Assembly (NCBI GenBank): GCA_963514005.1
Contig: OY740794.1
Coordinates: forward strand, 42,780,001 to 42,844,000
Direction: 5' to 3'
Origin: Raja brachyura
Lineage: Eukaryota
Length of the DNA stretch: 64,000 bases
Position 1 is the stretch's first letter; every line of letters begins with the position of its first letter. A model generated the notes under the pieces. That model was not told the origin of the DNA. It made no database searches and saw only the letters and a program-made list of their open reading frames with translations. The position numbers were made by a program, and so were the translations under genes. Below are positions 391-19,769 of the stretch, in pieces.

Positions 391-1154
391 CCTGGTGCTG
401 AACACATCTTGGTGGAACCAGTTTGTTGCTTGTATTACCTCGCTACATACCTTGCCTGTAACGTGAAAGACAACTGGACCATTTGGTTTCCATGGTCAAA
501 CTCACGGTTCCCTTTGGCTATAACTCGGAGGGTCCCTCCTGGTCATGTGCCCAACAATATTTTGCTCCACCTAAGCAACGAGTGGATGAAGTATATCAGA
601 TCTGCATCTCACCCACAGCAGTGCCAATGCACAATTTAATTGTTGCTTAATGGGCTGGGCTGAACTGTGCTGTTGCAATCACCCTTCTCATTTATGTAAA
701 TGTTCAACCTTTCTTTTTCCACATCTTCCTTGCTGGTTTCATTGTTCCCAGAGCGGGAATGTGTCTTAACCTTTCTCCATGCATCTGAGGACTACTATCT
801 TTACCAACAATATCTTTCTTCACATAAGAGTCAAGAGTGTTTTATTGTCATATGCCCTGAAACTGAATAATGAAATGCCCAAACCATGCCGCCGTGACTA
901 TGTGGTTTGGAGTTTATTTGAACGTTGTAGTCTTTAATAGTAAGATTAAACGAGAACTTACCAGTTTGAAGTTTGATCTTTATTTTATGAGGAGTTACGA
1001 TGAGGGATTACGTGAAGACCCCGCCAGCACGCATGCGCGACATTCTTCAAAGCAGTGGTGTGAAATCACAGACAGTCACAATGACTAATATAGTAAGATA
1101 AGAGAGAACTTTCATACCAGGTGATCTTTATGGTAGAGGGTTGGGAGCGGAGGG

Positions 1155-1268
1155 CACGTAATCCCTCATCGTAACTCCTCATAAAATAAAGATCAAACTT
1201 CAAACTGGTAAGTTCTCGTTTAATCTTACTATTTTATTTCGGTAGTCACATGAGTGACTACGTGAAGA
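1155..1268. repeat. Internal complementary region (ICR) of DIRS copy A
   Basis: 1155-1233 is a perfect 79-nt reverse complement of 936-1014; 1229-1268 is the reverse complement of 5678-5717 (39/40). Confidence 0.95.
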
Positions 1269-1425
1269 TTTCAAAGCTCTGTGATTTCATGCCCTGGAAG
1301 CTCCATGCTCACACACCGCTAAAGTTGGGATAAGAGGATGAACGTAATTCAGACAAGACACTGGCTGAAAAACAAAAATAGGTATTTATTCATACCAAAA
1401 CAATATAGTGTCCCATAAGGGTAAA

Positions 1426-2401
1426 CTATCTGGCAGCACTCAAAATCCTCCCTGCATAAGTGTCAGGGGAGGTCACGGGTTTATAGTAAAAGCGGTGAAA
1501 AGTCTTTTCGTTACTCCAACCCGCTGTGGCCAGGATGTGGTCCAATGGTACTTCCATCCTCCTAGCCGCCGAGGTGGATGCCGCCCTGGTGGAGTGAGGT
1601 TTGAATATGTTAGTGTCCACCCCCGCCGCATCCAGTACCACCCTTAACCATCTAGAAATGGTTTGCACCGTGACTTTATGATGGGGCTTCTTGTGACTAA
1701 TGAGCAATGCTGTCTCCGTGCCCTTAGATTTTTGGTGACTGTGATGTATCGTGAAATTAACGTGACGATACAGAGACGAGAATCTGCTGGATAAGCCAGA
1801 AATTCTAAAGTATGACCAGACACTCCGGGTCGATCTTGTTTCAACAGTCCCTGCACATAAAAAATGATTTTGTCATTGGTGATTGTCATAGCATCCAGAT
1901 TAAGTTTGTGCAGGGACTGGACCCGTTGTGCCGTGATAAGTGCCATGATCATTACCATTTTGTAAGTGAGTTTTGCCAGAGTGAGTCCCGAGTTAGGTGT
2001 CCATCCTCGCAGCATAGTCAAGACTGTGCTGATATCCCAAGTATGGCTATGTCTGGCCCTGGGGGGATTGGAATTGAATATTCCCCTCATAAGTTTGGAT
2101 ACTAAAGGATGTGATCCAATTCCCAATTGGTCACTCCCCCGGCCCAAGTAGGATGATAGGGCACTCCTGGCACTGTTTATGGCACTGTAGCTCAATCCCT
2201 CATCGAAGTGAAGGGTAGCCAAGAATTCAGCACTTCCGTTATGGTGGCGGTTTCATATGTGGTGTTGGCTGTGATGCAGAATCCTTCCCATTTCCTGATG
2301 TAGGTCAGGTACTGCTTCCTTGTGGACTCTCTGCAAGCTGCTGTGATGGTGTCTATGGTCCTGTTGGTGAGTCCGAATCCGCAAAGAGGCCGTTTTAAAA
2401 T
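1426..2401 (-). pseudogene. DIRS tyrosine recombinase (two frameshifts, ~2225 and ~1720)
   Basis: ORF pieces 2192-2407, 1644-2222 and 1426-1707 carry AQRVQ (R), LKQ (K), HSTR (HxxR), AGW and FYYK (Y). Confidence 0.92.
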
Positions 2402-4321
2402 CTGCAAATTAACAGGTCCATGCGGTCATGACATGGGTGATGTTCTCCTGTTACGGGGTGAATGAGCAGGCTTGGTCTTTTATGGACCCGGATGCAAGGT
2501 TCTGTGGCCATCTTCTGTACCATAGGGAACCATGGTTGGGTAGGCCAGTCGGGCACCACCAAAATCCCCGATGCGGAATCTTGTTTTATTTTCTGCAAGA
2601 CCCGACTGATGAGGCAGAAAGGGGGAAATGCATAGCAAAACAAATCCCCCCAATGTAGCGTGAAGGCATCCATCGCTACTGCCCCCGGGTCTGGTTCCCA
2701 AGCAACATATGTTGGTAGTTGGTGATTTAACCTAGACGCGAAAAGGTCGATATCTGGTGTCCCATAATGTTCTACAATATCTGAAAACACATTCCGATCC
2801 AACATCCATTCTATGTTGTCGTTGAATTTGCGTGACCTGGTGTCTGCCACTGTGTTTAGCTTACCTGGAAGGTAAGTGGCTGAAATCCAAATTTCCCTTT
2901 GCAGACACCAGTGCCAGATATTGTTATCCAATTCATCACACGATATCGACTTTATACCGCCCATGTGGTTAATATAGGCCACCACCGTGGTGTTGTCAAT
3001 TTGTATTCTAACATGAACTTTGTGCATATTTGTGCAGTATGCTTTAAGGCCGTGAAATGCTGCCAGCATTTCTGAATAGTTAATCCCCAAGTTTTTGAAT
3101 TGGGTTAACTCTGGTGCACTCCATCTACCTCCACAACTAGAGGTAGTGTTAGTAGCTCCCCACCCTTTGGCACTGGCATCCGTTTGTAAGATGATCGAGG
3201 GATTGATGATAGTGATCGATTTAGAACAATTTTGGGCATTACCCATCCACCAATATAATTCGGCTTTCGCCTTTTCCAGTATTTTCATAGGCCTATCGAA
3301 ATGGCCTGCATGATTTTTGAGCGCTGTAATTTTGGCTCTTTGTAAGTTTTGGTAATGTAAAGGCCCAAATTGTGCTGCAGGAAATGCAGCCACTATCTTC
3401 CCAATCACCCTGGCCACCTGCCGAATGGATGGGTCCTTAATGCCAATGAGGCTCCTGCAAGCCTCTCTCCACCTTGCTTGGTGGCAACGTGATAGACATA
3501 TGCACTGAGTCAATAATGAACCCTAGGTATTTCATGGTGGTAGAGGGTTCTAATATTGATTTATCTGGATGTATAATGAAACCCAGCTTCTGAAAGAGAT
3601 GTTTCGTGGCTGTAACTGCCAATGTAGCCATTTCCAAATTTTCCCCCACAATGAGGATGTCATCAAGATAGGCCATAACAGTATGATTCTGTTTCCTTAA
3701 GTAGGCCAAAGCTGGTTTTAATATCTTGGTAAACAATCTGGGTGCTGACGATAACCCATTAGGTAAGGCTTTGTATTGCCATAATTGTCCCATCCAGATA
3801 AATTTTAAGTATTTCCTATGATCCTTGTGTATTGGTACTGAATAGTATGCATCTTTGAGGTCAATGCATGCCATGTAGTACCCATCGGCTATTAACTGTA
3901 TAGCAGTGTCGAAGGTGTCCATTTTGAAATGAACATACTGAACAGAAGTATTCAGTTCGGTCAAATCTATGATAATGCGGCAACCGCCGTCTTTTTTATT
4001 TTTGGTGAATATATTAGACACGAACTCCTGAGGTTCTTTAATGGCTTTCTCAATTACCCCTTTTCCTATTAACCTGTGAAGTTCAGCATGCCCTGCTGCC
4101 TTCTCTTTTTGAGAGAGGATGAATTTTCGGCTAGGTGAATGCTGGACCGGGGTAGGGAGTTCGTGAATAAATTCAATTTTGTAGCCCTGAATACTCCTGA
4201 GTATGTAAGGATCAGAGGTAAAAGTGAACCAATTCTCGTAGAACATGTGCAACCGGCCCCCTACATAAAGTGAATTTAGGCAAGATGTGTTTCTGGGGAA
4301 CCCAGACCCACCTACCTCCAT
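2395..4321 (-). pseudogene. DIRS pol: reverse transcriptase, RNase H and Dam-like methyltransferase (frameshift ~3460)
   Basis: RT IDLKDAYY, LPNGL, YLDD; RNase H LQTDAS, IDNTT, NTVAD; MT DIDLFAS and YAFPPF. Confidence 0.95.
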
Positions 4322-5534
4322 GGTTACTGTCGGTGTTGTGGTTTCTGTCCTGTTTCCTTGGTTGGTTCATTGTGTTGTAGGAGTGGCGCATCTTCCAAGA
4401 AGGCCGGGCTGGGCCATGGCCTAAAAAAGACCGCTGTGCAGGATTGCCGGCCTTCGAGCTTTCACCACCGGCAGACCTGTTATGGTAACTCTGTCCGGTG
4501 GGTGTGTAGGGGTGCTGTCCTTGTGGGTAGTGAGACTTGGTGTAGCCAGGAACCTTGATCAGGCCTAAGGCCTTGGCCTCCTCATCAAGGTCTTTAACCT
4601 GCTTGGGGAGATCATCCCCGAACAGCAGGCTTGGAGGCTGAGTCTTCCCAGGCTTACACAACCCCGCAAACTTGGGGTTAAGCGCCGGCTTTATGATGCT
4701 TTTTCTGAAATTATTGATCTCATACTGGGTATTGCACAGTAGAGCCAAGGCATCTTGCAGTTCTTCCGGCATCTCAATACCCACTGCAGTTCTGGCCACT
4801 GCCGTAATCCCGGCGGTTAGGAGCTTCAGGATCCTTTGAAGTTTTATCTCCTGCCCTCTGCTCGAGGGGCTCATGTTCCCCCATATAGGGTTGTTTACCG
4901 CAGGGACATTTAGCGAGTTGCAGTTTTCAGGTGCCATATATTTGTCTGCAGTTGCATTAATGGCCTGTTCCTGCAGCTGGTTAGTTGCCATGTAGTTAAT
5001 GCTGGCAGCCAGCTTTGGGTGGATTGGTAGGCCCTTCTGGTTGGGCATTGCATGTTGGCTTACCATATCCATGTAGTCTTCACACACCCCTGACACAGAT
5101 GGTTGTTCAGCCAGCTCCCCTTCTTCTGGGTCAGCCCAGTTCTGACCCTCAATGCTCCCCTGCAAGGAGGGTGAGACATTAGGCAGTCCTCGGTAGGAAC
5201 CTGCCGTGGGCCTGTTAAGAGGCCCACTGTGACTCTGCCCCTGCATTAGCAGGTCACGTTGGAGCAATTGCTCCATCATCCGCTCCATGCGGGTTAGACG
5301 ACCTCCGTCGCTATCTGCGAACGGGGTGTCCTCGGGACCGGACTCCGCTGAGTCGGCGGCCTCGTCCGACTTCCGGGTGGCTCTACCGCCCGACCGTGGC
5401 GTCCCAACGGCCCCTATGGGCGAGAAGTCGGGAGCTGCAGGTAAAACCTGCAGCTCTGGAGAGGCGGCTCGCTGCTGGCTGCTCTCCTTGGCAGCTGCTT
5501 TGGCCGCAGCTCTTTTAGATTTTCGTGATTCCAT
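4212..5534 (-). CDS. DIRS gag-like ORF1, copy A
   Basis: First ATG after the 5' ITR is at 5534 (MESRKSK). Shares RMERM and NCNSLNVPxVNxPIWGN..KLLTAGITA..LCNTQYEIN with copy B. The ancestral stop was probably TAA at 4326-4324, as in copy B. Confidence 0.85.
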   Translation of the reverse strand: MESRKSKRAAAKAAAKESSQQRAASPELQVLPAAPDFSPIGAVGTPRSGGRATRKSDEAADSAESGPEDTPFADSDGGRLTRMERMMEQLLQRDLLMQGQSHSGPLNRPTAGSYRGLPNVSPSLQGSIEGQNWADPEEGELAEQPSVSGVCEDYMDMVSQHAMPNQKGLPIHPKLAASINYMATNQLQEQAINATADKYMAPENCNSLNVPAVNNPIWGNMSPSSRGQEIKLQRILKLLTAGITAVARTAVGIEMPEELQDALALLCNTQYEINNFRKSIIKPALNPKFAGLCKPGKTQPPSLLFGDDLPKQVKDLDEEAKALGLIKVPGYTKSHYPQGQHPYTPTGQSYHNRSAGGESSKAGNPAQRSFLGHGPARPSWKMRHSYNTMNQPRKQDRNHNTDSNHGGRWVWVPQKHILPKFTLCRGPVAHVLRELVHFYL

Positions 5535-6440
5535 TCCTGTACTATGTCGTTGACTCAGTCCTCCGGTGAGACTTACCTGGCGTAAGCTATTTAAACTTAC
5601 GCTGGAGGAGCCCCGCTCCTCCCGACCGTCGCTTCCGCATGCGTACGACGATATGTCGCGCATGCGTGCTGGCGGGGTCTTCACGTAGTCACTCACGTGA
5701 CTACCGAAATAAAATAGCCTGATTGTTATAGGGATGAAGCTGAACCTGGATGTTAACAATTTTCAGGCTTCTATACTTTCTTCTCGATGGTCAGAGTGAA
5801 ATGAGAGTGTGGCCAAGGTGGTGTGAGTCCCTAATGATGATGGCTGCCTTTTTAAGGCACACTCCCTCCCTCCGATGGTGGGGAGATCAGTTCCTGTGGT
5901 GGGCTGGGCAGTGCTCACCACGTTTTGCAATCTTCTTTTTCTTGGGTGTTTGGGTTGCTGAACCAGGCCACGATGCAACCAGTCAATATGCTCTCTACTG
6001 TGCACTTGTAGAGGTTCAAGAGAGTCTCGGTGACGTTTCCAAATCGCCTCAATCTGCTGAGGAAGTGGTGGCGTTGATGGGCTCTCCTTATGATTGCATC
6101 ATTGTGTTGGGTCCAGGGCAGCTATGTCACTGTGCTTCTCCAACCCAACCAAATCTGCCACAACCTCCCCCAGTCAGCAACCCAAGCTATTTGATGGTGG
6201 CTCCAGGCTCCACTATCTTTGCTTAGTTAAACTAATAATTTCATTTCGGAGTCACGTGAGTGACTTCGTGAGGAACCAGCCAGCACGCATGCGCGACATA
6301 TCGTCGCAACGCATTGCAGTCGACGGCTGGAGGTGGAGCGCGGCTCACCACCAGCCCTCCATAAGGGCCGCTCAGGTAAGTGTAACTAACCTTGAGTTGG
6401 TTGGTTTTTGTTGCGCGAGTGTTTTTCTCCCAACAGAAAC

Positions 6441-8184
6441 ATGGATAGGAAGAATAAGGGCCATAGGACGTCCGCACGGAGTCGCCGGCCACCCATCCCG
6501 GAGCCCTCATCAACGGCTACACCTGCGAGTCAGGCCGGGAAAAAGGCAAGGAAGGTGGGGAGCCCTGTCGTCACAGGACCCGACCTGCCGATACTCCGCA
6601 GCTCTAGCGAGGATCCCGCAGAGCAGGACTTCGGTGTGCCACCGGAGCAGGCTGACCCTGACTCCATATCTCTGTCGCCAACGGGCTCGTTGGTCGACCA
6701 GGGCAAACAGGGTTCACGTGCTGCCGCACGGCCCTTCTCCCTGAGCCCTCGGAGGAGAGGGAGGGATAGAGCCCGTCAACCTAGCCCTTCGCGGGCAAAG
6801 GTATCACCTGCCGCTAGATTGCGGACTGGTGAATTGGCGGGACTCAAGTCCACTGGGAGACCTGGAAGGACCAGTGTCGACTCACCAACCACCAGGACCA
6901 GGAAGAGTCATTCAGGTGGAGTCCCGCCACGGTCACCGAGTCCCCCGTGGATGGGAGGACGGGACCGTACACCGTCTAGGCCCAGGATTAGGGCAGTCGG
7001 CAAGCCCGCGCGGATGTCGGGTCACCACGCCGAGGCGTCGGGTGCCAACCTCTCACCGCGTTTGCCCTCCGAGGCAGCGGGATCGAGCTCCGCCAAAAGG
7101 AGGCGTTTGAGCAGATCCGCGCGGGAATCGCTCAGTTTCGCTGCGGCGGCTGGTAGCGACAGTTCTTTCTGGCACCGAGATTACCTCAACGAGGTACGGG
7201 CCGATGACAGGAGCCTCAGCAGTTCCGTTGAACATGAGGACTCCGACCGCCCGTGTTCGAAGGGCGAAGGGCGTATTGACAGGATGGAGCGGATGTTGGA
7301 ACTTCTCCTGCAACAAAACCAGAGGCGGGAAACATCTAGTTCCAGAGGGCACATGGAGTTATCCCCATCGTCAGCGGGAAGCCTGAGACAGCCGGAGGAT
7401 GAGGACATCTTGGTCCATGCACCATCTACATCTGAGGCCCCTCAGGAGGAGCTCCTGGATGTGGCAACTAAATTTGCACTGTCGGAGTCGTCAGGACTAC
7501 ACCTCAACCCCAAACTGGCTGCCACCGTGGACTTCCTGACGAACCATCAGCTTCAGGAGGAGGTCCTGTCGGAGGCCATGAATAGGCACAAAGCCCCAGC
7601 AAATTGCAACTCCCTCAACGTGCCCATCGTCAATACGCCGATTTGGGGCAACATCAGCCCAGGGATCAGAACCCAGGAGATGAAGCTCCAACGGATCCTG
7701 AAGTTGCTCACTGCTGGGATTACCGCGTTTGCACGGTCGGTGGACGGGGAGGATCTGAACACCGAGCAGGAGGATGCTCTGGCACTACTGTGCAACACAC
7801 AGTACGAAATAAACGCATTTAGAAAGAGCATTATTAAACCCACACTGAACCCAAAATTTGCGGGACTATGCAAAGCACCTCCTACACCGCCACCCAGACA
7901 GTGTCAAGGAACTGGATGACCACGCTAAGACGGTGGGGCTCATGCGGTCACATATCTCGACCAGGCAGCCGGCCAGGAAAGTGCCATTTTTCAGGCCACG
8001 AGGCCCTGCAGTTAGGCCAGCAAGGACCTACGCTCCAGCACCACCTCAATTTCAGCAACCTCAACAACCTAGGCCTTTTTTAGGGCTAGGCCCCCAGCGG
8101 CCACCATGGAAGATGCGGACGCCGCATCATCAGCTCAACCCAGCACCTCCACGTCCTGCCAAACATATCAGGGACCGCCGATAA
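6441..8184 (+). pseudogene. DIRS gag-like ORF1, copy B (frameshift/deletion ~7890-7900)
   Basis: ORF 6408-7919 (ATG 6441) continues in ORF 7858-8184 (DSVKELDD..PFLG..WKMR), collinear with copy A gag. Confidence 0.85.
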
Positions 8185-8186
8185 CC

Positions 8187-10114
8187 ATGGAGGTAAGGCG
8201 GTCTGGATTTCATGCACCTGCATGCTTAATTTCACATGTTGGTGGGAGACTACGGTTCTTTACGGAGGCATGGGGAACCATCACTTCTGATGAGTTTATC
8301 TTACAAAGTATTCAAGGCCATGAGATTGAATTCATCAATGGTAAAATCCCTCCATCCCAGCATATGCCAGATCGGAAATTTACACTGTCCAGCAAAGAAA
8401 CGGCAGTAGGCTATGCTGAAATCTTAAGGCTACAAGAAAAAGGTGTGATAGAAAGAACTATTCACGAACCAATTGAATTTGTATCCAACGTATTTACAAA
8501 AACCAAGAAGGATGGAGAATGTCGGGTTATTATTGATCTGACCCATTTGAATACTTTTGTAAAATATACCCATTTCAAAATGGACACGTTCGAAACAGCC
8601 AAGTTACTGATTTCTGAGGGCTGCTTCATGGCATGCATTGATTTAAAAGATGCATACTATTCAGTATCCATTCAGAAACACCACAGGAAGTTCTTGAAAT
8701 TTACCTGGATGGATCAGCTCTGGCAATACAGAGCTTTGCCAAATGGGCTTACCACAGCCCCTAGATTATTTACTAAATTGCTCAAACCAATACTGGCTAC
8801 ACTAAGGAGACAAAATCATATAGTGATGGCCTATCTAGATGATATCCTAATTATTGGGAACACGCTGGAATCAGCGGAACTGGCAGTTTCAGCCACCATG
8901 GAAATTTTTCAGAAAATGGGGTTCATTATCCATCCAGATAAATCAAAGTTCTGCCCTTCACAGGTCATGGATTATCTGGGGTTCACGGTGGATTCCAATC
9001 GCATGAGGGCCACCATACCAACTAACAAAGTTGGGGATGTCATCCAAGTATGCAAGAATCTAGTCTGCGCCAGTATACCATCAATTAGACAAACTGCTAA
9101 GGTGATTGGCAAGATCGTAGCAGTTTTTCCAGCTGCCCAATACGGACCTTTGCATTATCAAAATCTGCAGAGAGCCAAGATCTCAGCGTTAAAACTGAAC
9201 GCTGGACATTTCGATAGACCTATGCAGCTGCCTCTAAAGGCAAAAATTGAGTTACAATGGTGGATTGACAATATTTGTGACTCGTTTAAACCCATCATTT
9301 TGCCCAATCCGATGGTATACTTACAAACAGATGCAAGCTCCCATGGCTGGGGAGCCACGGACAACTACTCTAGTTGTGGAGGCAGATGGGACACCCTTGA
9401 ATCTACCCTGTTGTTGTCACAAGGGATAAACTATTTGGAGATGCTAGGAGCATTTCATGGACTTCGAGTTTATTGTTCTAACCTTACTGACGCTCATGTC
9501 CGTCTCCAAATAGATAATACCACTGCGGTGGCATATCTAAATCATATGGGCGGTACCAGGTCAGTTTCATGTGATGAATTGGCAAATACAATTTGGCTCT
9601 GGTGTATTCGACGGAATATTTGGATTTCAGCTACCTATTTACCAGGTAAGCTCAATACAGTGGCGGACACCAGGTCACGCAAATTCAATGACAACATCGA
9701 GTGGATGTTAAATTCCCAAATATTCGCTAAAGTTACAGCCAAATTTGGTAAACCGGATATCGACCTTTTTGCGTCACGGTTGAACCATCAGGTACCAACA
9801 TACGTTTCGTGGGAACCAGATCTTGGGGCAATGACGATGGACGCGTTCTCGCTAGATTGGGGGAAATGGTTTTTCTATGCATTTCCTCCATTTGCCTCAT
9901 CAGTCGGGTATTGCGGAAAATCCAGTCAGATGCTGCTAAGGGCATTCTTATCATACCCGACTGGCCTACGCAGCCATGGTATCCGGTGGTCCTTGATATG
10001 ATCAGTCAACCATGGGTCCTCTTAGAGGGTTGCCCACAATTGGTGACGAACCCTGTCTCAGGGGAACCACATCCCTGCCACAGTCACCTAAACCTATTGG
10101 CTTGCAGGTTCTGA
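8187..10114 (+). pseudogene. DIRS pol: RT, RNase H and methyltransferase (1-nt frameshift ~9892; alternative in-frame ATG at 8106)
   Basis: IDLKDAYY, YLDD, LQTDAS, INYLEM, DIDLFAS, YAFPPF; the C-terminus continues in ORF 9809-10114 (CLISRVLRKI..LLACRF). Confidence 0.95.
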
Positions 10115-11091
10115 ACAGGCCATTACTACGGTATGGCCTATCATCCAGAACTATGGATACCATTGGAGCGTCATGCCGGGAGTCCACCAGGCGGCAATAT
10201 CTCACACATATCCGGAAATGGGAAACGTACTGCGGCCGCTCCCACATTGCATACGACTCCGTTACCATCACCGACGTATTGGAATTTCTGGCGGGGTTGC
10301 ATCATGACGAACACCTCAGCTACAGTGCCATCAACAGCGCCAGGAGTGCGCTATCATTCTACCTCAATATTGAGGTAGGATCCAACAGGCTGGTGTCCAA
10401 GCTCATGCGGGGAATATTTAATTCCAATCCGCCAGACCTCGTTATAACATCACCTGAGATATTGGGAAGGTATTAACCCTGCTCAGGACGTGGTCGCCCA
10501 TGGAGGGGCTTGAATTGGACAAACTCACCCTGAAGCTGGTGATGTTACTGGCACTGACTTCAGCGCAGAGGGTACAGACACTCCACAAGGTCAGGATCGA
10601 CAGGATGATCTCTACCCCTGGCGAAGTAATCTTCTTCATAGACGAATTACTCAAGCAGCATAGACCTGGGTTCACAGGGCTGCAGCTGAAGTTTCCAGCA
10701 TACCCCGCTGATGCAAGGCTATGTTTAGACGCCCATATCCGCCACTACATCAAAGTGACGAGAAAATTGAGGGGAATGGAGAAATATTTACTCATCAGCC
10801 ACAAGAAACCTCACCATAGAGTGATGGTACAGACGATCTCCAGGTGGCTCAGGATCGTCTTGGGTGAGGCAGGTATTGACACTAATGTCTTTAAATCCCA
10901 TTCCACCAGGGTCTGCATCGACGTAGGCGGCAAGGGTCATGGAGGTGTCCATGGACCATATTCTTGCCACAGCAGGATGGGCGAACGAAGCCACCTTCCA
11001 GCGGTTTTACAATAAACCTGTTGCCGCTCCTGCATTGTTCGCGGAGGCCGTGCTGAATGCAGGTCAAGAGCATGCAGATGTCCCCCAGTGA
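10108..11091 (+). pseudogene. DIRS tyrosine recombinase, copy B (frameshifts ~10435 and ~10911, nonsense codons)
   Basis: AQRVQ, LKQ, HSTR, AGW, FYNK; in-frame TGA near 10455 and TAG near 10924 indicate genuine decay. Confidence 0.92.
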
Positions 11092-11244
11092 GGGGTTTTT
11101 TCCTTTGTTTGTTGTTAATAAATATTGTTATTATTTTTTCAGTACAAGCAGTCTGGAAAGTTGATTACTCCTATCCATCCTTATAAGTGGTGTGTGACAG
11201 CATGGATGTGGTCCAGGGCATGGAATCACAGAGCTTTGAAGTCT

Positions 11245-11351
11245 TCACGAAGTCACTCACGTGACTCCGAAATGAAATAGTAAGGTTAAACAAGAACTTA
11301 CCAGTTCGAAGGTTGATCTTTATTTTATGAGTTGCGATGAGGGATTTCGTG
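11245..11351. repeat. ICR of DIRS copy B
   Basis: Reverse complement of the 5' terminus (6238-6271) joined to that of the 3' terminus (11498-11577; 2 substitutions and a 3-nt gap). Confidence 0.93.
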
Positions 11352-11577
11352 CCCTCCGCTCCCAACCCTCGATCATAAATCAACTGCTAATTAGAGTCTC
11401 TTCAATCTTACTATAACAAGTCATTTCTCTGTTGTTGTTTCTGTGATTCCACACCGCTACTTTGAAGTATGTCGTGCATGCGTGCTGGCGGGTTCTTCAC
11501 GAAATCCCTCATCGCAACTCCTCATAAAATAAAGATCAACCTTCGAACTGGTAAGTTCTCGTTTAATCTTACTATTT

Positions 11578-12842: not shown

Positions 12843-13370
12843 AGGGCCAGTGCCGTGGTGCTGCAGTAGAGCTGTTGCCTCACAGCGCTAAAGACCCACG
12901 TTCAATCCCGACATCTCTAATTTTGGAGTTTGCACGTTCTCCCTGTGACCACGTGGTTTTTTCTCGGGGTGCTCTGGTTTCCTCCCACATTCCAAAGATG
13001 TGCAGGTTTGTAAGTTGATTTGGCTTCTGTAAATTGCCCCTAGTGTGTAGGATGTAAAAGTGGGATAACTTAGAACTGGTTTATAGTGATCGATGGTGGG
13101 CGTGGAGTTGGTGGGTCGAGGGGTCTGTTTCCACGCTGTATCTTTAAGGGCCTGTCCCACGGCCATCATTTGCGCGTAATTTACGCAACATAATTTACGC
13201 GCCACGATGTGCGCGTCGCGACACGCTTGTGATGCGCGCATGGTGCGTGATGACATAGACAGTGACGCGCGACCACGCAGGATTTTGTGATGTACAAAAT
13301 CTTTGTGCGCCATCTGCAGGACGCGCAATGACGGCCATATGGGACGGGCCCTTTAAACTCTAAACTAAAA
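12843..13370 (+). mobile_element. HE1-type V-SINE interrupted by a MITE
   Basis: tRNA-like head (GGTAGAG..GTTCAATCC), V-core GGTTTCCTCCCACA, CR1-like tail ending TAAACTAAA. Confidence 0.85.
13147..13352. mobile_element. PIF/Harbinger-type MITE
   Basis: TIRs AGGGCCTGTCCCA..TGGGACGGGCCCT; TTA TSD at 13144-46 and 13353-55; inserted in the SINE tail. Confidence 0.8.
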
Positions 13371-13799
13371 GGGGCAGTGAGAGACACCAAATACTGTGCT
13401 GTACACTATACAGTCTTATTGTATTTGGATCCAAGAACCTTCGTCCCTTGGCATCTTTCGGATTCCTTTACATTCACAGATTTGTGGATCATTGGTGGAT
13501 TGTTCTGAACAATGTACTCCCTAATCTGTGGTGAATATGTTTAACAATTCCAGGGGAAGATTTCCATATTCATGCCTTGTTTGCATCAAATTTGTATCAC
13601 AGAAAGATTACCTTTCATTGAGTGATAAGTACTTGCTATTTGAGTTTAAATGTGTCTTCTTGAATTTTATTGTACTTGCAGGACAAAAGGCATTGGGATA
13701 ATGGGAGTGGTGCTGATTTGGTGGGAGTGGTGTTAATGCGGTCTTAAGGCGGGATGAATGAGTAGAAGTAGCAATCCTTTTCAATCGTGTCCGCTTCTA

Positions 13800-14048
13800 T
13801 ATCTCCCTCTGGCAGCTCATTCAAGATATGGACTACCCTCCAAGTGAATAAGTTGCCCCTGAAGTCCCCCCTGAAAAGCTACCCTCTCACCGTAAACTTG
13901 CGCCCTCGAATTTTAGAATCCTCTAACCTGGGAAAGAGACTGTGAGTGTTCACTCTATTCATCTCTGGCATCATCTTGTACACATCAATGCCACTCCTCA
14001 GCGTCTTACGCTCCAAAGAGTGAGTTCCTAACCTTTCTAACTTCTTAT
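13800..14048 (-). mobile_element. Degenerate CR1/HER1 LINE fragment
   Basis: YKKLERLGTHSLERKTLRSGIDVYKMM..LFPRLEDSKIRG matches the CR1 RT C-terminus. Confidence 0.75.
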
Positions 14049-14781
14049 AATTCAACTTCAACCTTCAAAATGGCGCCGATAGAATGTGACAGAGGAAAAG
14101 AACAGTTCCAGTGAGTGGGTTGTGGTCTTACCTCCTGCCCACTCGGAAATGCTCTGGGTGTACTGAGTTTGGCTACGGGAGGACGCCTTTGCCACGGAGG
14201 CTCAGTGGTGACTGTGTGAGGAAAGGGGCGCCGTGTTTGTGGGTCCATCTGATTAGGTCGAGGTGTTGGTGGAGTGAGGCGCTGGAAATGCAGTTTTTTA
14301 GTTTAATTTTAGCCTGAAAAAGGGTCTCGGCCCAAAACGACACCCATCCCCTTTCTCCAGAGATGTCCCGCTGAGACACTCTAGCATTCTGTGTCCATCT
14401 TTGGAATGTTATTTGGAATTCTGGGGAATAATATTCCAAGAGCCTATAACGACTGCTCCAGACGATTTGTGCTTGGTCTTACCGAGAGACTGCTCTCTGA
14501 ATTAATCCAAGAACAGAGCATGATATGCTGGACAGCCATCGTAAAGTAACATTACCTGCTGCTCTGTGCAGAATGTAATTACTGACAGTGACTCTGGAGA
14601 ACATGGATTTCCGGAATAAAGACATTTGTTTTACATTTCGGTACTCCTGGATCAGATTCCTATGATGGCAGCATATATTGGAGAGGATGAGACCTAATAT
14701 AGTAGATTTGAAATTATTGTGGACGGAAGCCTCTGCTTGTCACCTCTATAATGCATATTTCAAATTGCAGCTTTTTTTAAT

Positions 14782-14997
14782 GTGTAGGAAGGAACTGCAG
14801 ATGCCGGTTTAAACCGAATGTAGTCACAAAATGCTGGAGTAACTCAGTGGGACAGGCAGCATCTCTGGAGAGAAGGAATGGGTGACGTTTTGGGTCGAGA
14901 CCCTTCCTCAGACAGTCTCGATCGGAAACGTCACCCATTCCTTCTCTCCAAAGGTGCTGCCTGTCCCACTGAGTTACTCCAGCAATTTATGTCTATC
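14782..14997. mobile_element. Penelope pLTR fold-back (inverted pair)
   Basis: Two inverted pLTR arms meeting at the hammerhead; imperfect ~15-bp TSD 14766-14781 / 14998-15012. Confidence 0.8.
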
Positions 14998-15482
14998 TGC
15001 AGCGTTTTTAATATTGAGTTGGCACTGATCAGGAGCCATTCTTAGATGAGGAAAGTGCAAAGTGATTGAATGTGTGGGTTGAGGGCCTGTAATGTGCCAA
15101 ATATTTGAACAATTCTAGTTACACATTTGACAGCTATTATTTTAAGGAGACTGAAGCCATGGTTTATGTCTAGGAGTTGAATCCTTTAAAGTGCACACAG
15201 GACAGGGCAAGGAGGCGGATACAGAGTGCTGAAGTAACTCAAACAGGCAGCATCTCCACAACATGGTTGCAGGTCAGGACCGAACCTGGCGCTGAACCAG
15301 ATGTGCCACTGTGCCACCGCATAATTGTTTATTGAATGTTTAATGAGCCAGTAAAGCTGCAACAAATAGGGATTTCATTGTATAGTTCCCCTATATAACA
15401 ATTAAAACATTCTGGACTCTTGGGGAAGGGTATTATGCTCCAGTCCTCTTCAATCTCCTTAAAATAGGGTGTCACAGTGAAT

Positions 15483-15770
15483 GGCACAGCCGTAGAGAGG
15501 TTGCCTTACAGCGCCAGAGACCCGGGTTTGATTCAGACTATGGGTGCTGTCTCTACGGAATTAGTATGTACTCCCTGTGACCACGTGGGTTTTCTCCAGG
15601 TGCTCCGGTTTCCTCCCACATTCCGAAAACATGCAGGCCTGTAGGTTAATTGGCTTCGGCAAATTGTCTCGAATGTGTAGGATAGCACAAGTGTATGGAT
15701 GATCGCTGGTCGGCGCAGACTCGGTGGGCCGAATGGTGTGCTTCCGCGCAATATCTCTAAACTAAACTAA
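15483..15770 (+). mobile_element. HE1-type V-SINE
   Basis: tRNA head, V-core, (TAAAC)n tail. Confidence 0.88.
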
Positions 15771-15871
15771 TTAGCTCTCTTTCGTTCTCATTTTATCAGT
15801 TGTGTTTTTTTTTCTGATAGTGCTAATTGGTGCTAATTTATGGTGATCCAGGTTCTGGAAACACTGACTCC

Positions 15872-16005
15872 AGTAAGACACAAAATGCTGGAGTAACTCA
15901 GCGGGTCAGGCAGCATCTCTGAAGAGAAGGAATGTTTTGGGTCGAGACCCTTCTTCATTTTGTGCCTATTTTCGATTTAAACCAGCATCTGCAGTTCTTT
16001 CCTAC
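15872..16005. mobile_element. Penelope pLTR fold-back
   Basis: Inverted arms; 11-bp TSD ACACTGACTCC at 15861-15871 / 16006-16016. Confidence 0.8.
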
Positions 16006-16899
16006 ACACTGACTCCTGGAAGTTGGGTGTTGTCATCTGTGAGATGTCGCCTGAGTCGAGCTTCTTTGTTGGGTCCTTGAGACTGTCAGCATTGATTTTT
16101 CTTGTAGCAGTATTTCTGTTGCGGCTGTTGTTTAGAGGCCATGCTAATGGAGATAATGGAGCGAATTGTCAATCTCTACCCAGCTTTATTCAGCCGTTGT
16201 CCGCACATGGCTTGGAGGAAGTGCTTGGAGGATGGTCTGAAGGTTCCCTGTTAAATTGATGTGTGTTTGTGCTTCGAGATTGATGGGGGGGGGGATGTGA
16301 TTCTTGTGAAACAAGCACCCGAGAGGATTCTGGACCACGAGGAATGTGCCCGCGTCCTGTTGTGCTTAAGTGGAAACAGAAGCAAGGACAAATTGAGTTG
16401 CGCAGGTTTGGGTTATCAACACCCAGAGGATGCTTTGTGGCTGGTACGTGAATGGCCCTGATCATGAGCCACCTTATCATCCTTCAACGCTTTCAGTCCT
16501 GCCTGAAACGGCTATAAATTGCCATTCTCCTTGAAGTAGCACATCCAGATCTTATACTGCTACGCCTGCCGCCCAGTAGGGCAAGGTCATGGGGGGGTTG
16601 TTGCAACTCTCTTGTTGGTGAGGCAATGCCAAGAAGCAGGCTATTTTTGTTTCGTGCATTTCATCCATTTATTCTTTCTTCATAGATGCGAGTTAGCAGC
16701 AAAATAACTGGAAAATATCACATTTTCCGCTTGGCACAACTGGTGGAACAACTGCTACAGACACAGGAGGCTGTGTACAATGTGCTGCATCCAGGGCTTT
16801 TATTAAATGTCTCGGGCACACCTAAAACCACACTGATCGTACGCTCCCCATCCTCTTCATACCCCTTAAGTTTCCCTTTCTCTACCTGCCTCTCATGCG

Positions 16900-17372
16900 C
16901 TATGAGTGAGTCTATGTCCTGCCCTCTTTCTGCCTTTGTTCCTCATTTCACTCTCTCTCTGTCTCTCTTTCTCTTCATACCTCTATCTCTCCCCCCCCTC
17001 TGCACTCTCATTATCTCTGCCACTCTGTCCCTCATGCTCTCTCTCTCTGCTCCCTCTGCTCCCCCCTCTGTCTGCTCCCTTTCTCTTTCTGTTCCCTCCC
17101 CCTCTCTGTTCCTCTCTCTCTCACTCTCCGTGCCCCCCCATCCCTCCTGCATCTCTCTCTCTGCTCCCACTCTTCCACATTTTATCCCCCTGTGCACACC
17201 GCCCCTCCCGTTCTCTCTGCCACCCTCTACCTCTCTCTGCCGCTTCCCCCCTTCGCTCAGCCTCCCCCCAACCCCTCTCTGCCTCCCTGGTGCTCTATGT
17301 AGAACATGTTTACTCCCTTGTTATTCTGGCTGTTTCACATTATCTGGACAAAGATAGATAGATAGATAGATC
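16900..17372. repeat. CT-rich low-complexity tract followed by short (GATA)n
   Basis: Pyrimidine-rich run; GATAGATAGATAG at ~17353-17372. Confidence 0.85.
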
Positions 17373-17375
17373 GAT

Positions 17376-17640
17376 CTTTATTGTCATTCAGCCCTTTCGG
17401 TCTGAACGAAATTGTTTACCATACAGTTATAACATATAATTAAAAAAAACAAAACACACAATAAAACCATATCCAACATCTACCACAATGAGTTCACCAG
17501 GCACCTCCTCACTGTGGTGGAAGGCAAAAGTCTTAAGTCATTGCCTTCATCCCTCCTAGTTCTCCCTCTGCGCTGAGGCGATCCAGGACTCCGACGCCGC
17601 TGGAGCACCGCAGCTCTAAGCCGGACCGCCGCCGTTGATC
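17376..17640 (-). mobile_element. Non-autonomous retroelement fragment with Rex-like tail
   Basis: TTTATTGTCA tail next to a microsatellite; shares a motif with 12258-12275. Confidence 0.55.
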
Positions 17641-17853
17641 AGTGAAGACAGTTATGCAGGAAGCCTGAGATAATTCCACACCTGTTATAGAACACGTTTA
17701 AATGGTTAAATGTTTTCACTTTCATTTAAATGGAAGGAATAATGAGGCTGGCACGTTTACCCATTTAGGAGTCTCTTTGTGCTTTTCCAGTCTGTGGTTC
17801 CACCAGGCCAATACAACATGTCCAGGCAATAAAGGCACTCCCCTCTTTATCTC

Positions 17854-17993
17854 GAAGGTAGACACAAAATGTTGGAGTAACTCAGCGGGGCATGCAGCAT
17901 CTCTGGAGAGAAGGAATGCTGCTGGTCCCACTGAGTTACTCCAGCATTTTGTGTCTACCTTCAATTTAAACCAGCATCTGCAGTTCTTTCTTA
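17854..17993. mobile_element. Penelope pLTR fold-back
   Basis: Inverted arms; 14-bp TSD CCCCTCTTTATCTC at 17840-17853 / 17994-18007. Confidence 0.82.
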
Positions 17994-18825
17994 CCCCTCT
18001 TTATCTCCCTCGCTTTCATTAAAACCAGGTTGGCAGTGATATTGTGCACTGGCATGTTTCAGACCATCACTTGGGCATGAGTAAAATGTGGTTAAAGTGT
18101 TCGCTTCAGCCCACTTAAGTTGCTCCTTTGTTAAATTGGGAAGCACTTATGTTACAAGCAGCCACAATTATACACCCTGTGTTACGTCGTTTAATGGTGA
18201 AAGTGAATGTTTCCCATTTGCAGACTATAAAGTTAAAGCCTGAGCAGCAACAGGTCCATCTCGGTATCTTACTCCAAACGTTTTGTATCTAATAAACCTC
18301 TACTGAGGCCAGGGGTTGCTAACGAGTGAGTTTATCAGCGCCAAAAATAAACGGCAGATATCCTGAGGCTGATGAGTTGACTTTGAATTTGCCACTGACT
18401 GGAGGAGATCCTTCGGGTTGTGAGTCAGCATGGTAAGACCACCCTCTAAATCAATACCAGAGCAGATTTACTTTCAAATTGGCTTTTACCACACAAAAGA
18501 CAGCTGTGTGTTATGCAGGAAACTGCTGACACAGTGGAAAGCTCCATTTGAGGATTGGAGGCAAAACGCTCGTGTCTCTGAAAACTTAATTATTGATGTC
18601 ATCTTCAAACATTCTTTACGATTTGCAGTTGTCACTATCCAGCATCTAATTCCTTGGTTAAATTCTACTGTATGGTTGAACTTCATGTGTGCTACTGAGG
18701 GTGTAAGCGGTGCATTGTTTTGGAGACTAAAAGGTGCATAAATTTAATAAACATACGTGTTTATTAATGTGGCTGGGAAATGAAATAATGACGTTTATTA
18801 TTTAGAGGTGAAGATACTCTTGACT

Positions 18826-19012
18826 GTGTAGGAAGGAACTGCAGATGCTGGTTTAAACCAAAGATAGATAGACACAAAAAGTCTGAAGAAGGGTCTTGAC
18901 CCGAAACGTCACCTATTACTTTTCTCCAGAGATGCTGCCTGACCCGCTGAGTTGCTCCATCTTTTTGTGACTGTCTTTGGTTTAATCAGCATCTGCAGTT
19001 CCTTCTCACACG
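18826..19012. mobile_element. Penelope pLTR fold-back with intact hammerhead core
   Basis: CTGAAGA-AGGGTCTTGACCC-GAAAC-GTC at 18883-18910. Confidence 0.8.
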
Positions 19013-19465
19013 CTTTGTGTGTTTGTTACCAGTCTCAGGAAGTGCACTGCACACCAGTGTTACATTAAATTAGCCAAACGGACACAACAGGCTGATTTCA
19101 CTGCTAGTTCATCCTGATGTTTAATGACCTGTTACATCTTCATCTGTTCTTATCCCAAGTTGGGGAAACAGCAAAATGTTGCCTCTTCCTGCATGTTGCA
19201 AGCATTCTGTGAAGTGTTGTCAGTCAGTTAGATGTGTGAGTTAGACACGGGAGACTTATTCGTGCAGGTGAGAGGCATTCGTTTTGAGAGCAATAATTTG
19301 CCAGATTTCCCGTGTATTGAGTTCAAGTGCTGAAAGCTTTACATGAAGCCTGGCAGGTAAGTGACTCTTCTGTGCAAATGTAATCAGTGCCTCAAATGTC
19401 ACTTTGCAAAAGAACTTGCACTTGTGGTACAGCTTGCAATATGGCATATGTCCTTTGATTATGCA

Positions 19466-19769
19466 TTTTAGTTTAGTTTAGAGATGTAACCAGGAAACAA
19501 GCCCTTTGGCTTACCGAGTCCACGCCGACCAGCGATCCCTGTACACAAACACTATCTTACACGCTAGGGACAATTTACAATTGTACCAAGCCAATTAACG
19601 TACACACCTGTACGTCTTTGGAGTGTGGGAAGAAACTGGAGATCCCGAAGAAAACCCACTCAGATCACGGGGAGAACATACAAACTCCGTACAGACTGCA
19701 CCTGTAGTCAGGATCGAACCAGGATCCCTGGTGCTGTAAGGCAGCAACTCTACCACTGTGCTACCGTGG
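19466..19769 (-). mobile_element. HE1-type V-SINE
   Basis: Reverse-complement head, core and (GTTTA)n tail. Confidence 0.88.

Follow-up and report, generated by a model that had tools for sequence, protein, structure and literature searches.

A conserved candidate −1 frameshift signal at the gag end of DIRS1-like retrotransposons, with possible use as a splice site in a lineage from Raja brachyura

How do DIRS1-like retrotransposons bring the reading frames behind gag, those of the polymerase (pol) and of the tyrosine recombinase (YR), to translation? The question is raised by a stretch of 64,000 nucleotides from Raja brachyura (assembly GCA_963514005.1, contig OY740794.1, positions 42,780,001 to 42,844,000), here called the window, in whose own numbering all coordinates are given. 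Its first 11.6 kb consist of two head-to-head DIRS1-like retrotransposons, copies A and B, both decayed. A sequence-only reading of the window had proposed that a donor before gag and a conserved acceptor at the gag end produce a gag-skipping pol mRNA, next to unspliced gag/genomic RNA and a doubly spliced YR mRNA. In the features given here and below, a slash within letters or between two positions marks the cut.

936..5716, minus strand: copy A, DIRS1-like retrotransposon with several frame breaks
6236..11577, plus strand: copy B, DIRS1-like retrotransposon with frame breaks in the 3′ part of gag, at the end of pol and in YR
6236..6306, plus strand (B), and 5646-5716, minus strand (A): left inverted terminal repeat
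6441..8184, plus strand: gag of B, ATG at 6441, stop TAA at 8182-8184, broken near 7900
8187..10104, plus strand: pol of B, with reverse transcriptase (RT) and a weak Dam-like methyltransferase match
10108..11090, plus strand: tyrosine recombinase of B, with SAM-like and integrase domains, broken in two places

DIRS1-like retrotransposons are described, in the passages of PMC3266345 and PMC9210276 that treat them, as carrying gag, RT/RH/MT and YR ORFs, inverted terminal repeats (ITRs) and an internal complementary region, and copies A and B share with these tyrosine-recombinase elements the gag, RT and YR ORFs, the ITRs and the internal complementary region. The last two were found in both copies, the left ITR being complementary to the internal complementary region plus the right ITR (near 11242-11577 in B, 936-1298 in A). 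The copies are about 68% identical in DNA over pol-YR. The RT ORF lies 3′ of a gag-like ORF and matched RVT_1 (E values of 1e-22 and 3e-21 in the two copies); the putative methyltransferase at the pol end matched Dam with E values of 8e-4 and 4e-3, both under the gathering score. In the recombinase, Phage_int_SAM_4 was above the cut-off, and Phage_integrase and Flp_C were below it, in broken pieces; full-length relatives of the recombinase carry PF00589. The gag products generated no match in Pfam; homologues exist, the named ones from skates.

Several other features of the locus were recorded. The left ITRs contain the words GTCACGTGA and CGCATGCGC (6250-6300, plus strand; 5652-5702, minus strand), which we take to resemble E-box and NRF1 sites. 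An ATG within CGCATGCGC is open through to the leader donor described below, in phase 0 and over 29 codons, in both copies; this ATG may precede the transcription start. Two strong donor-like words are common to both copies, CAGGTAAGC in the RNase H region (9643-9651, plus strand; 2867-2859, minus strand) and CTGGTAAGT in the right terminal repeat (11548-11556, plus strand; 964-956, minus strand). Several dispersed short repeats, presumably SINE-like, lie around both elements (297-398 and 12959-19761).

The leader between the 5′ ITR and gag holds the following sites.

6373..6381, plus strand: leader donor CAG/GTAAGT of B, cut 6375/6376
5571..5579, minus strand: leader donor CAG/GTAAGT of A, cut 5577/5576, homologous to that of B
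6420..6436, plus strand: pyrimidine-rich YAG before the gag ATG of B, cut 6436/6437, four bases 5′ of the ATG

The leader donor was present in each copy at the cut that had been proposed. Scored by a simple count of U1 matches, it reaches nine of nine and is the highest-scoring donor of each element. Perfect donors are expected by chance at 6e-4 per 150 nt and 0.52 per whole window; three were seen in the window, and two of them are the leader donors of A and B. The leaders of the two copies had been called dissimilar; they align, however, at 65% overall and at 54% from ITR to donor, and the two donors are therefore one inherited site and not independent hits. The site stayed perfect in both copies while its flanks drifted to that 54%. 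It looks to be under selection and is probably functional.

A functional leader donor need not join the gag end. Its partner might be the YAG before the gag ATG or the recombinase acceptor, or U1 might bind it without splicing, and such another role is quite possible, though we lean slightly against it. In B, the YAG at 6436, which is absent from the sequence-only reading, scores equal to the gag-end YAG at 8083 (rank 3 of 68), but it would end a leader intron of only 61 nt; in A, the corresponding intron would be 40 nt long and the YAG is poor (rank 40 of 49). Nor does a junction of this kind appear among the 15 joints listed of the 253 described further below.

The gag end of the two copies, up to a second donor behind the gag stop, is made up as follows.

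8076..8082, plus strand: slippery heptamer T_TTT_TTA of B in gag phase; G follows; putative acceptor AG at 8082-8083
4422..4428, minus strand: slippery heptamer T_TTT_TTA of A in gag phase; a frame break lies between the heptamer and the pol ATG
8089..8102, plus strand (B), and 4415-4402, minus strand (A): hairpin GGCC-N6-GGCC, 6 nt 3′ of the heptamer, a candidate, weak frameshift stimulator
8182..8198, plus strand: gag stop, Kozak ATG (8187) and second donor GAG/GTAAGG of B, cut 8192/8193, pol phase 0
4326-4310, minus strand: counterpart in A of gag stop, Kozak ATG and second donor, cut 4316/4315

The sequence-only reading had described CTTTTTTAG followed by G at 8083/8084 in B and 4421/4420 in A, inside the gag F-L-G codons, as well as middle segments of 109 nt (B) and 105 nt (A), GCCACCATGG at 8106 of B in the pol frame, and upstream ATGs in the segment of A. 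All of these were found, the 3′ ends of the segments reading AACCATGGAG/GT and the ATGs of A lying at segment positions 4, 30 and 51. Ordered by pyrimidine count, a crude measure of a 3′ splice site, the gag-end YAG comes fourth among the 68 YAGs of B and fourth among the 49 of A. A further AG lies 9-11 nt upstream in both copies. A branch-like YTNAY was found 15-45 nt upstream in neither copy, a blunt test, since the second-intron acceptor of B likewise lacks this word.

What had gone unmentioned is that the T-run reads, in both copies, as a gag-phase T_TTT_TTA heptamer of the form X_XXY_YYZ. HIV-1 uses U_UUU_UUA, which encodes FLG there. In B, pol lies in the −1 frame; a stop in this frame stands one codon ahead of the heptamer, and from the heptamer to RT the frame is open. 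In copy A as it now stands, the −1 frame is closed between heptamer and pol, and the frame relation is disturbed by the break. Nine contigs of run X5 diverge from the sequence of copy A behind 4351, and copy A is therefore not typical of all its kin around that position.

Relatives were collected with a 50-protein RT alignment as query, from which the best 80 of 351 confirmed metagenome loci and four genome-collection contigs were fetched; viral contigs gave no match. After removal of three loci with a partial or broken RT start (L060, L083 and L084), 83 loci, A and B included, were grouped at 80% RT DNA identity into 49 families, namely A, B and 47 relatives. Two of the DIRS1-like elements, L081 and L082, lie on contigs labelled as bacterial MAGs and are probably eukaryotic contamination of these MAGs.

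An in-phase slippery heptamer lies within the gag/pol overlap in 41 of the 49 families, as T_TTT_TTN in 38 and as A_AAA_AAC in three. The words at these sites are TTTTTTA followed by G (25), TTTTTTA followed by T (6), TTTTTTG (5), TTTTTTC (2) and AAAAAAC (3). Eight families lack an intact site: in L018 and L049, the in-phase AAAAAAC is followed by a stop in the pol frame; L015, L054 and A appear broken at the gag end; L043 is cut off; L062 is without a site; and L048 carries gag and pol in one 1144-codon ORF, with the second donor kept in phase 0. Judged by this ORF, L048 is a natural Gag-Pol fusion. Words of six T's plus any base in the overlap are in phase in 38 of 39 cases and out of phase once. 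When the FL dipeptide was picked from protein alone in the last 60 gag codons, it was encoded T_TTT_TTR in 36 of 36 cases, against 7 of 153 other FL dipeptides. Together, the phase and the codon choice show that selection acts on the nucleotides and their phase, and not on the AG.

The downstream ORF is in the −1 frame and open from the heptamer in B and 40 relative families, an openness partly built into the selection of the 41 families; the third frame is open across the same stretch in none of the 41. A pol-frame Met precedes the conserved GGRL start of pol in all but 22 of the 41 families, and precedes the second donor in 12. Three pol proteins from the databases have the same open FFR linker, again without Met. 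The leader donor also proved local. Among the 30 relatives scored (17 relative families without a full gag ORF were left out), none has a leader donor scoring 8 or more, the best reaching 7.5, with a few gag starts perhaps mis-picked. Leader donor and Kozak ATG appear to be additions of the window's lineage.

These counts bear on whether the T-run could be conserved in all these elements simply as a polypyrimidine tract plus acceptor, which we regard as very improbable. AG does stand right behind the T-run at 25 of the 41 sites, but it is missing at 16, where the following AG is in phase 0 six times, in phase 1 four times and in phase 2 six times; A_AAA_AAC is no pyrimidine tract; an acceptor needs neither a fixed phase nor exactly six T's; and matching donors and start codons are absent. 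On the RT tree (47 rows, L015 and L076 left out), loss of AG takes 12 changes and A_AAA_AAC at least two. A shared first exon, in which a donor inside gag would join gag to pol at this AG, was also considered and rejected, as the needed phase occurs in 1 of 24 donors.

The spelling TTT-TTA-GG, raised in the sequence-only reading as a possible constant of FLG across families, is therefore not the invariant: T_TTT_TT is (36 of 36), whereas the AG varies and three families use A_AAA_AAC. Of the gag-skipping pol mRNA, the donor half held up, in that the donor looks selected; the gag-end TTTTTTAG fails across families as a conserved acceptor, because of the missing AGs, the A_AAA_AAC sites, the 22 families without Met and the lack of leader donors in the 30 relatives. 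A −1 frameshift accounts for the invariance of the T-run, the loss of AG, the A_AAA_AAC sites and the missing Met codons and leader donors alike.

On comparative sequence grounds, we therefore consider it probable that DIRS1-like elements have inherited, in these gag-end letters, a signal for programmed −1 ribosomal frameshifting. On the full-length RNA, most ribosomes would end Gag about 18-51 codons past the heptamer, and some would move back by one base at T_TTT_TTN or A_AAA_AAC, enter the pol frame and produce Gag-Pol, the slip being aided by a G+C-rich stem just 3′ of the heptamer. We infer the slipping itself, its rate, the fusion proteins and all other protein products. The form X_XXY_YYZ, the heptamer A_AAA_AAC and a spacer of 5-9 nt are described in PMC5009743, which also gives pol in the −1 frame for 28 of 51 animal LTR elements. 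The gag-phase X_XXY_YYZ, pol in −1 and a candidate 3′ stem are the same as in the −1 gag-pol frameshifting of retroviruses and LTR elements; unlike these, DIRS1-like YR elements are without protease or integrase, and a donor that can swap pol for the recombinase follows.

RNA folding was compared with dinucleotide shuffles over bases +5 to +65 behind the heptamer. Folding was stronger than in the shuffles (mean z −1.52; 21 of 42 below −1.5), and control windows gave mean z values of −0.11 upstream and −0.10 in the gag body. For the single copies, z was −2.9 in B and 0.35, no better than shuffles, in A. The best hairpin started 2-14 nt from the heptamer in 11 of 40 cases against 6.8 expected, a weak test of the spacer. 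A pseudoknot scan gave 8 of 42 at the site against 3 and 2 in the controls, with no clear enrichment, and none in A or B.

Against a pure frameshift model stand the own Kozak ATG and the perfect leader donor of A and B, which such a model does not need. The two copies belong to a well supported clade of ten rows in the RT tree, in which AG is kept in 10 of 10, the residue after FL being G, D or E, and in 16 of 28 other rows with six T's (p 0.016, kinship ignored). Of the eight remaining members of the clade, seven lack a pol-frame Met ahead of the second donor; a leader was scored in seven, none of which has a leader donor, yet AG is kept in all eight. A leader splice therefore does not explain the AG of these members; it may have another cause, such as slip context or a Gag motif.

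In the window's own lineage, the slip site might serve in addition as the 3′ splice site for the leader donor, on top of frameshifting, and the Kozak ATG of the resulting gag-free mRNA would start Pol if the second intron is kept, or the recombinase if it is removed. We put this dual use forward tentatively, as a possibility that falls somewhat short of likely. It is favoured by the co-occurrence of the perfect donor and ACCATGG in A and B, set against the donor's absence from all 30 relatives, by P0008, which also begins MEV, by the AG kept throughout the clade, by the pyrimidine rank of the gag-end YAG and by the first ATG past that site in B, which is in the pol frame and in strong context; near-relative conservation of ATG and donor is that of A, B and P0008. 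Foamy viruses produce Pol in this way: the relevant passages of PMC3705302 report, from RNA, a pol mRNA formed by a leader donor and an acceptor inside gag upstream of the pol ATG, and state that no Gag-Pol is made. The gag-skipping model shares with them the leader donor, a putative gag-internal acceptor and, in A and B, pol's own ATG, and differs in that the gag-end site is slip-like in relatives. Dual use is opposed by the other AG just upstream and, bluntly, by the missing YTNAY, by the clade members that keep AG without Met or leader donor, and by the exon of A, in which a strong-context ATG at 4 nt leads to a stop. A weak objection, and a further difference from foamy virus, is that neither 6375>8084 nor 5577>4420 is among the 15 listed of 253 joints, obtained from contigs of four runs.

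The start of pol allows another route in the window's lineage, namely re-initiation at pol's own ATG after the gag stop (TAA-CC-ATG), with neither splice nor slip. The gap from the gag stop to this ATG is 2 nt and lies within a block of 14 letters, spanning gag stop, Kozak ATG and second donor, that is identical in A and B. Re-initiation is nonetheless improbable, as it leaves the retained heptamer and donor unexplained and the arrangement is missing from most relatives.

The second donor leads from the frameshift signal to the recombinase, for which the acceptor is given here.

10090..10108, plus strand: recombinase acceptor TGCAG/ of B, cut 10107/10108, recombinase phase 0; in A, cut 2402/2401

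The second donor is widespread: in 43 of the 49 families, the best donor past the gag stop has phase 0 relative to pol. Because it lies past the gag stop and in that phase, the same slip on RNA spliced from the second donor to the recombinase acceptor would yield a Gag-recombinase fusion; in the window's lineage, the recombinase could alternatively start from the ATG six bases before the second donor. The acceptor is clear in the window's clade and not in most other families, the best YAG before the recombinase being in phase 0 in 14 of 36. As a clear phase-0 YAG occurs in only part of the families, the Gag-recombinase fusion would not be general. Outside the window's clade, the open recombinase frame reaches 70-85 codons further upstream in most families, for example in L012, L018, L027, L033 and L066, where it is open about 240 nt before the SAM domain; this is a hint that those families use another acceptor, or another point of entry, close to the FPPF motif of pol. 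Within the window's clade, two overlapping donors four bases apart (GAG/GTAG/GTGAGT or similar) were seen at the second donor in L002, L005, L006, L011, L065 and L078.

Junctions were sought in contigs of the four runs, none of which is on record as RNA; contigs drop rare forms. One X6 contig contains the joint 8192>10108 with GT..AG ends, at a depth of 615, with a short side of 26 letters and 4 ambiguous letters, and this is exactly the predicted recombinase splice. If X6 is DNA, the joined contig would mean genomic copies without the pol intron, that is, retrotransposed spliced RNA. Six longer homologues of the recombinase protein showed no spliced or fused N-terminus.

The matching passages of PMC3266345 and PMC9210276 describe ORF overlaps, with no gag-pol frameshift signal or splicing. 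Neither a gag-pol frameshift nor a gag-skipping splice in DIRS1-like elements was found in the passages available of these two papers or of PMC7192593, PMC9341512, PMC13003380, bioRxiv 10.64898/2026.05.21.726589, PMC6681497, PMC5633606, PMC5009743 and PMC3705302; in PMC5009743, the word 'DIRS' is absent from the first 300,000 of 449,034 characters. A −1 frameshift has been proposed for the RT/YR overlap of Ngaro (Poulter and Butler 2015, as quoted in a passage of PMC13003380), which also belongs to the DIRS order but to another superfamily, and whose junction is RT to YR and not gag to pol. Within this partial search, no earlier record of a DIRS1-like gag-pol frameshift was found, and a mention in DIRS reviews or in the supplements of PMC3266345 or PMC9210276 is possible; the passages searched also offered no explanation for the translation of the second and third ORFs of these elements.

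The stronger result, read from sequence comparison, is that DIRS1-like elements share a putative conserved −1 frameshift cassette. The mechanism is known, and we found no record of it in this setting; a shift to splicing in the window's lineage is possible. That both parts hold together, with one −1 frameshift feeding both enzymes in DIRS1-like elements and the window's lineage having turned the heptamer and the following G into a 3′ splice site by adding leader donor and Kozak ATG, seems to us rather doubtful. If true, it would mean that frameshifting of the retrovirus type gave way to gag-free expression of the foamy type on one seven-letter signal. A conserved slip site would explain how DIRS1-like elements make their enzymes. 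It predicts that database 'pol' proteins starting at an ATG are, for the most part, mis-annotated, and that the enzymes enter particles as Gag fusions although there is no protease match. It would also supply natural −1 cassettes by the dozen, among which heptamers were swapped independently, and provide a short cassette for testing.
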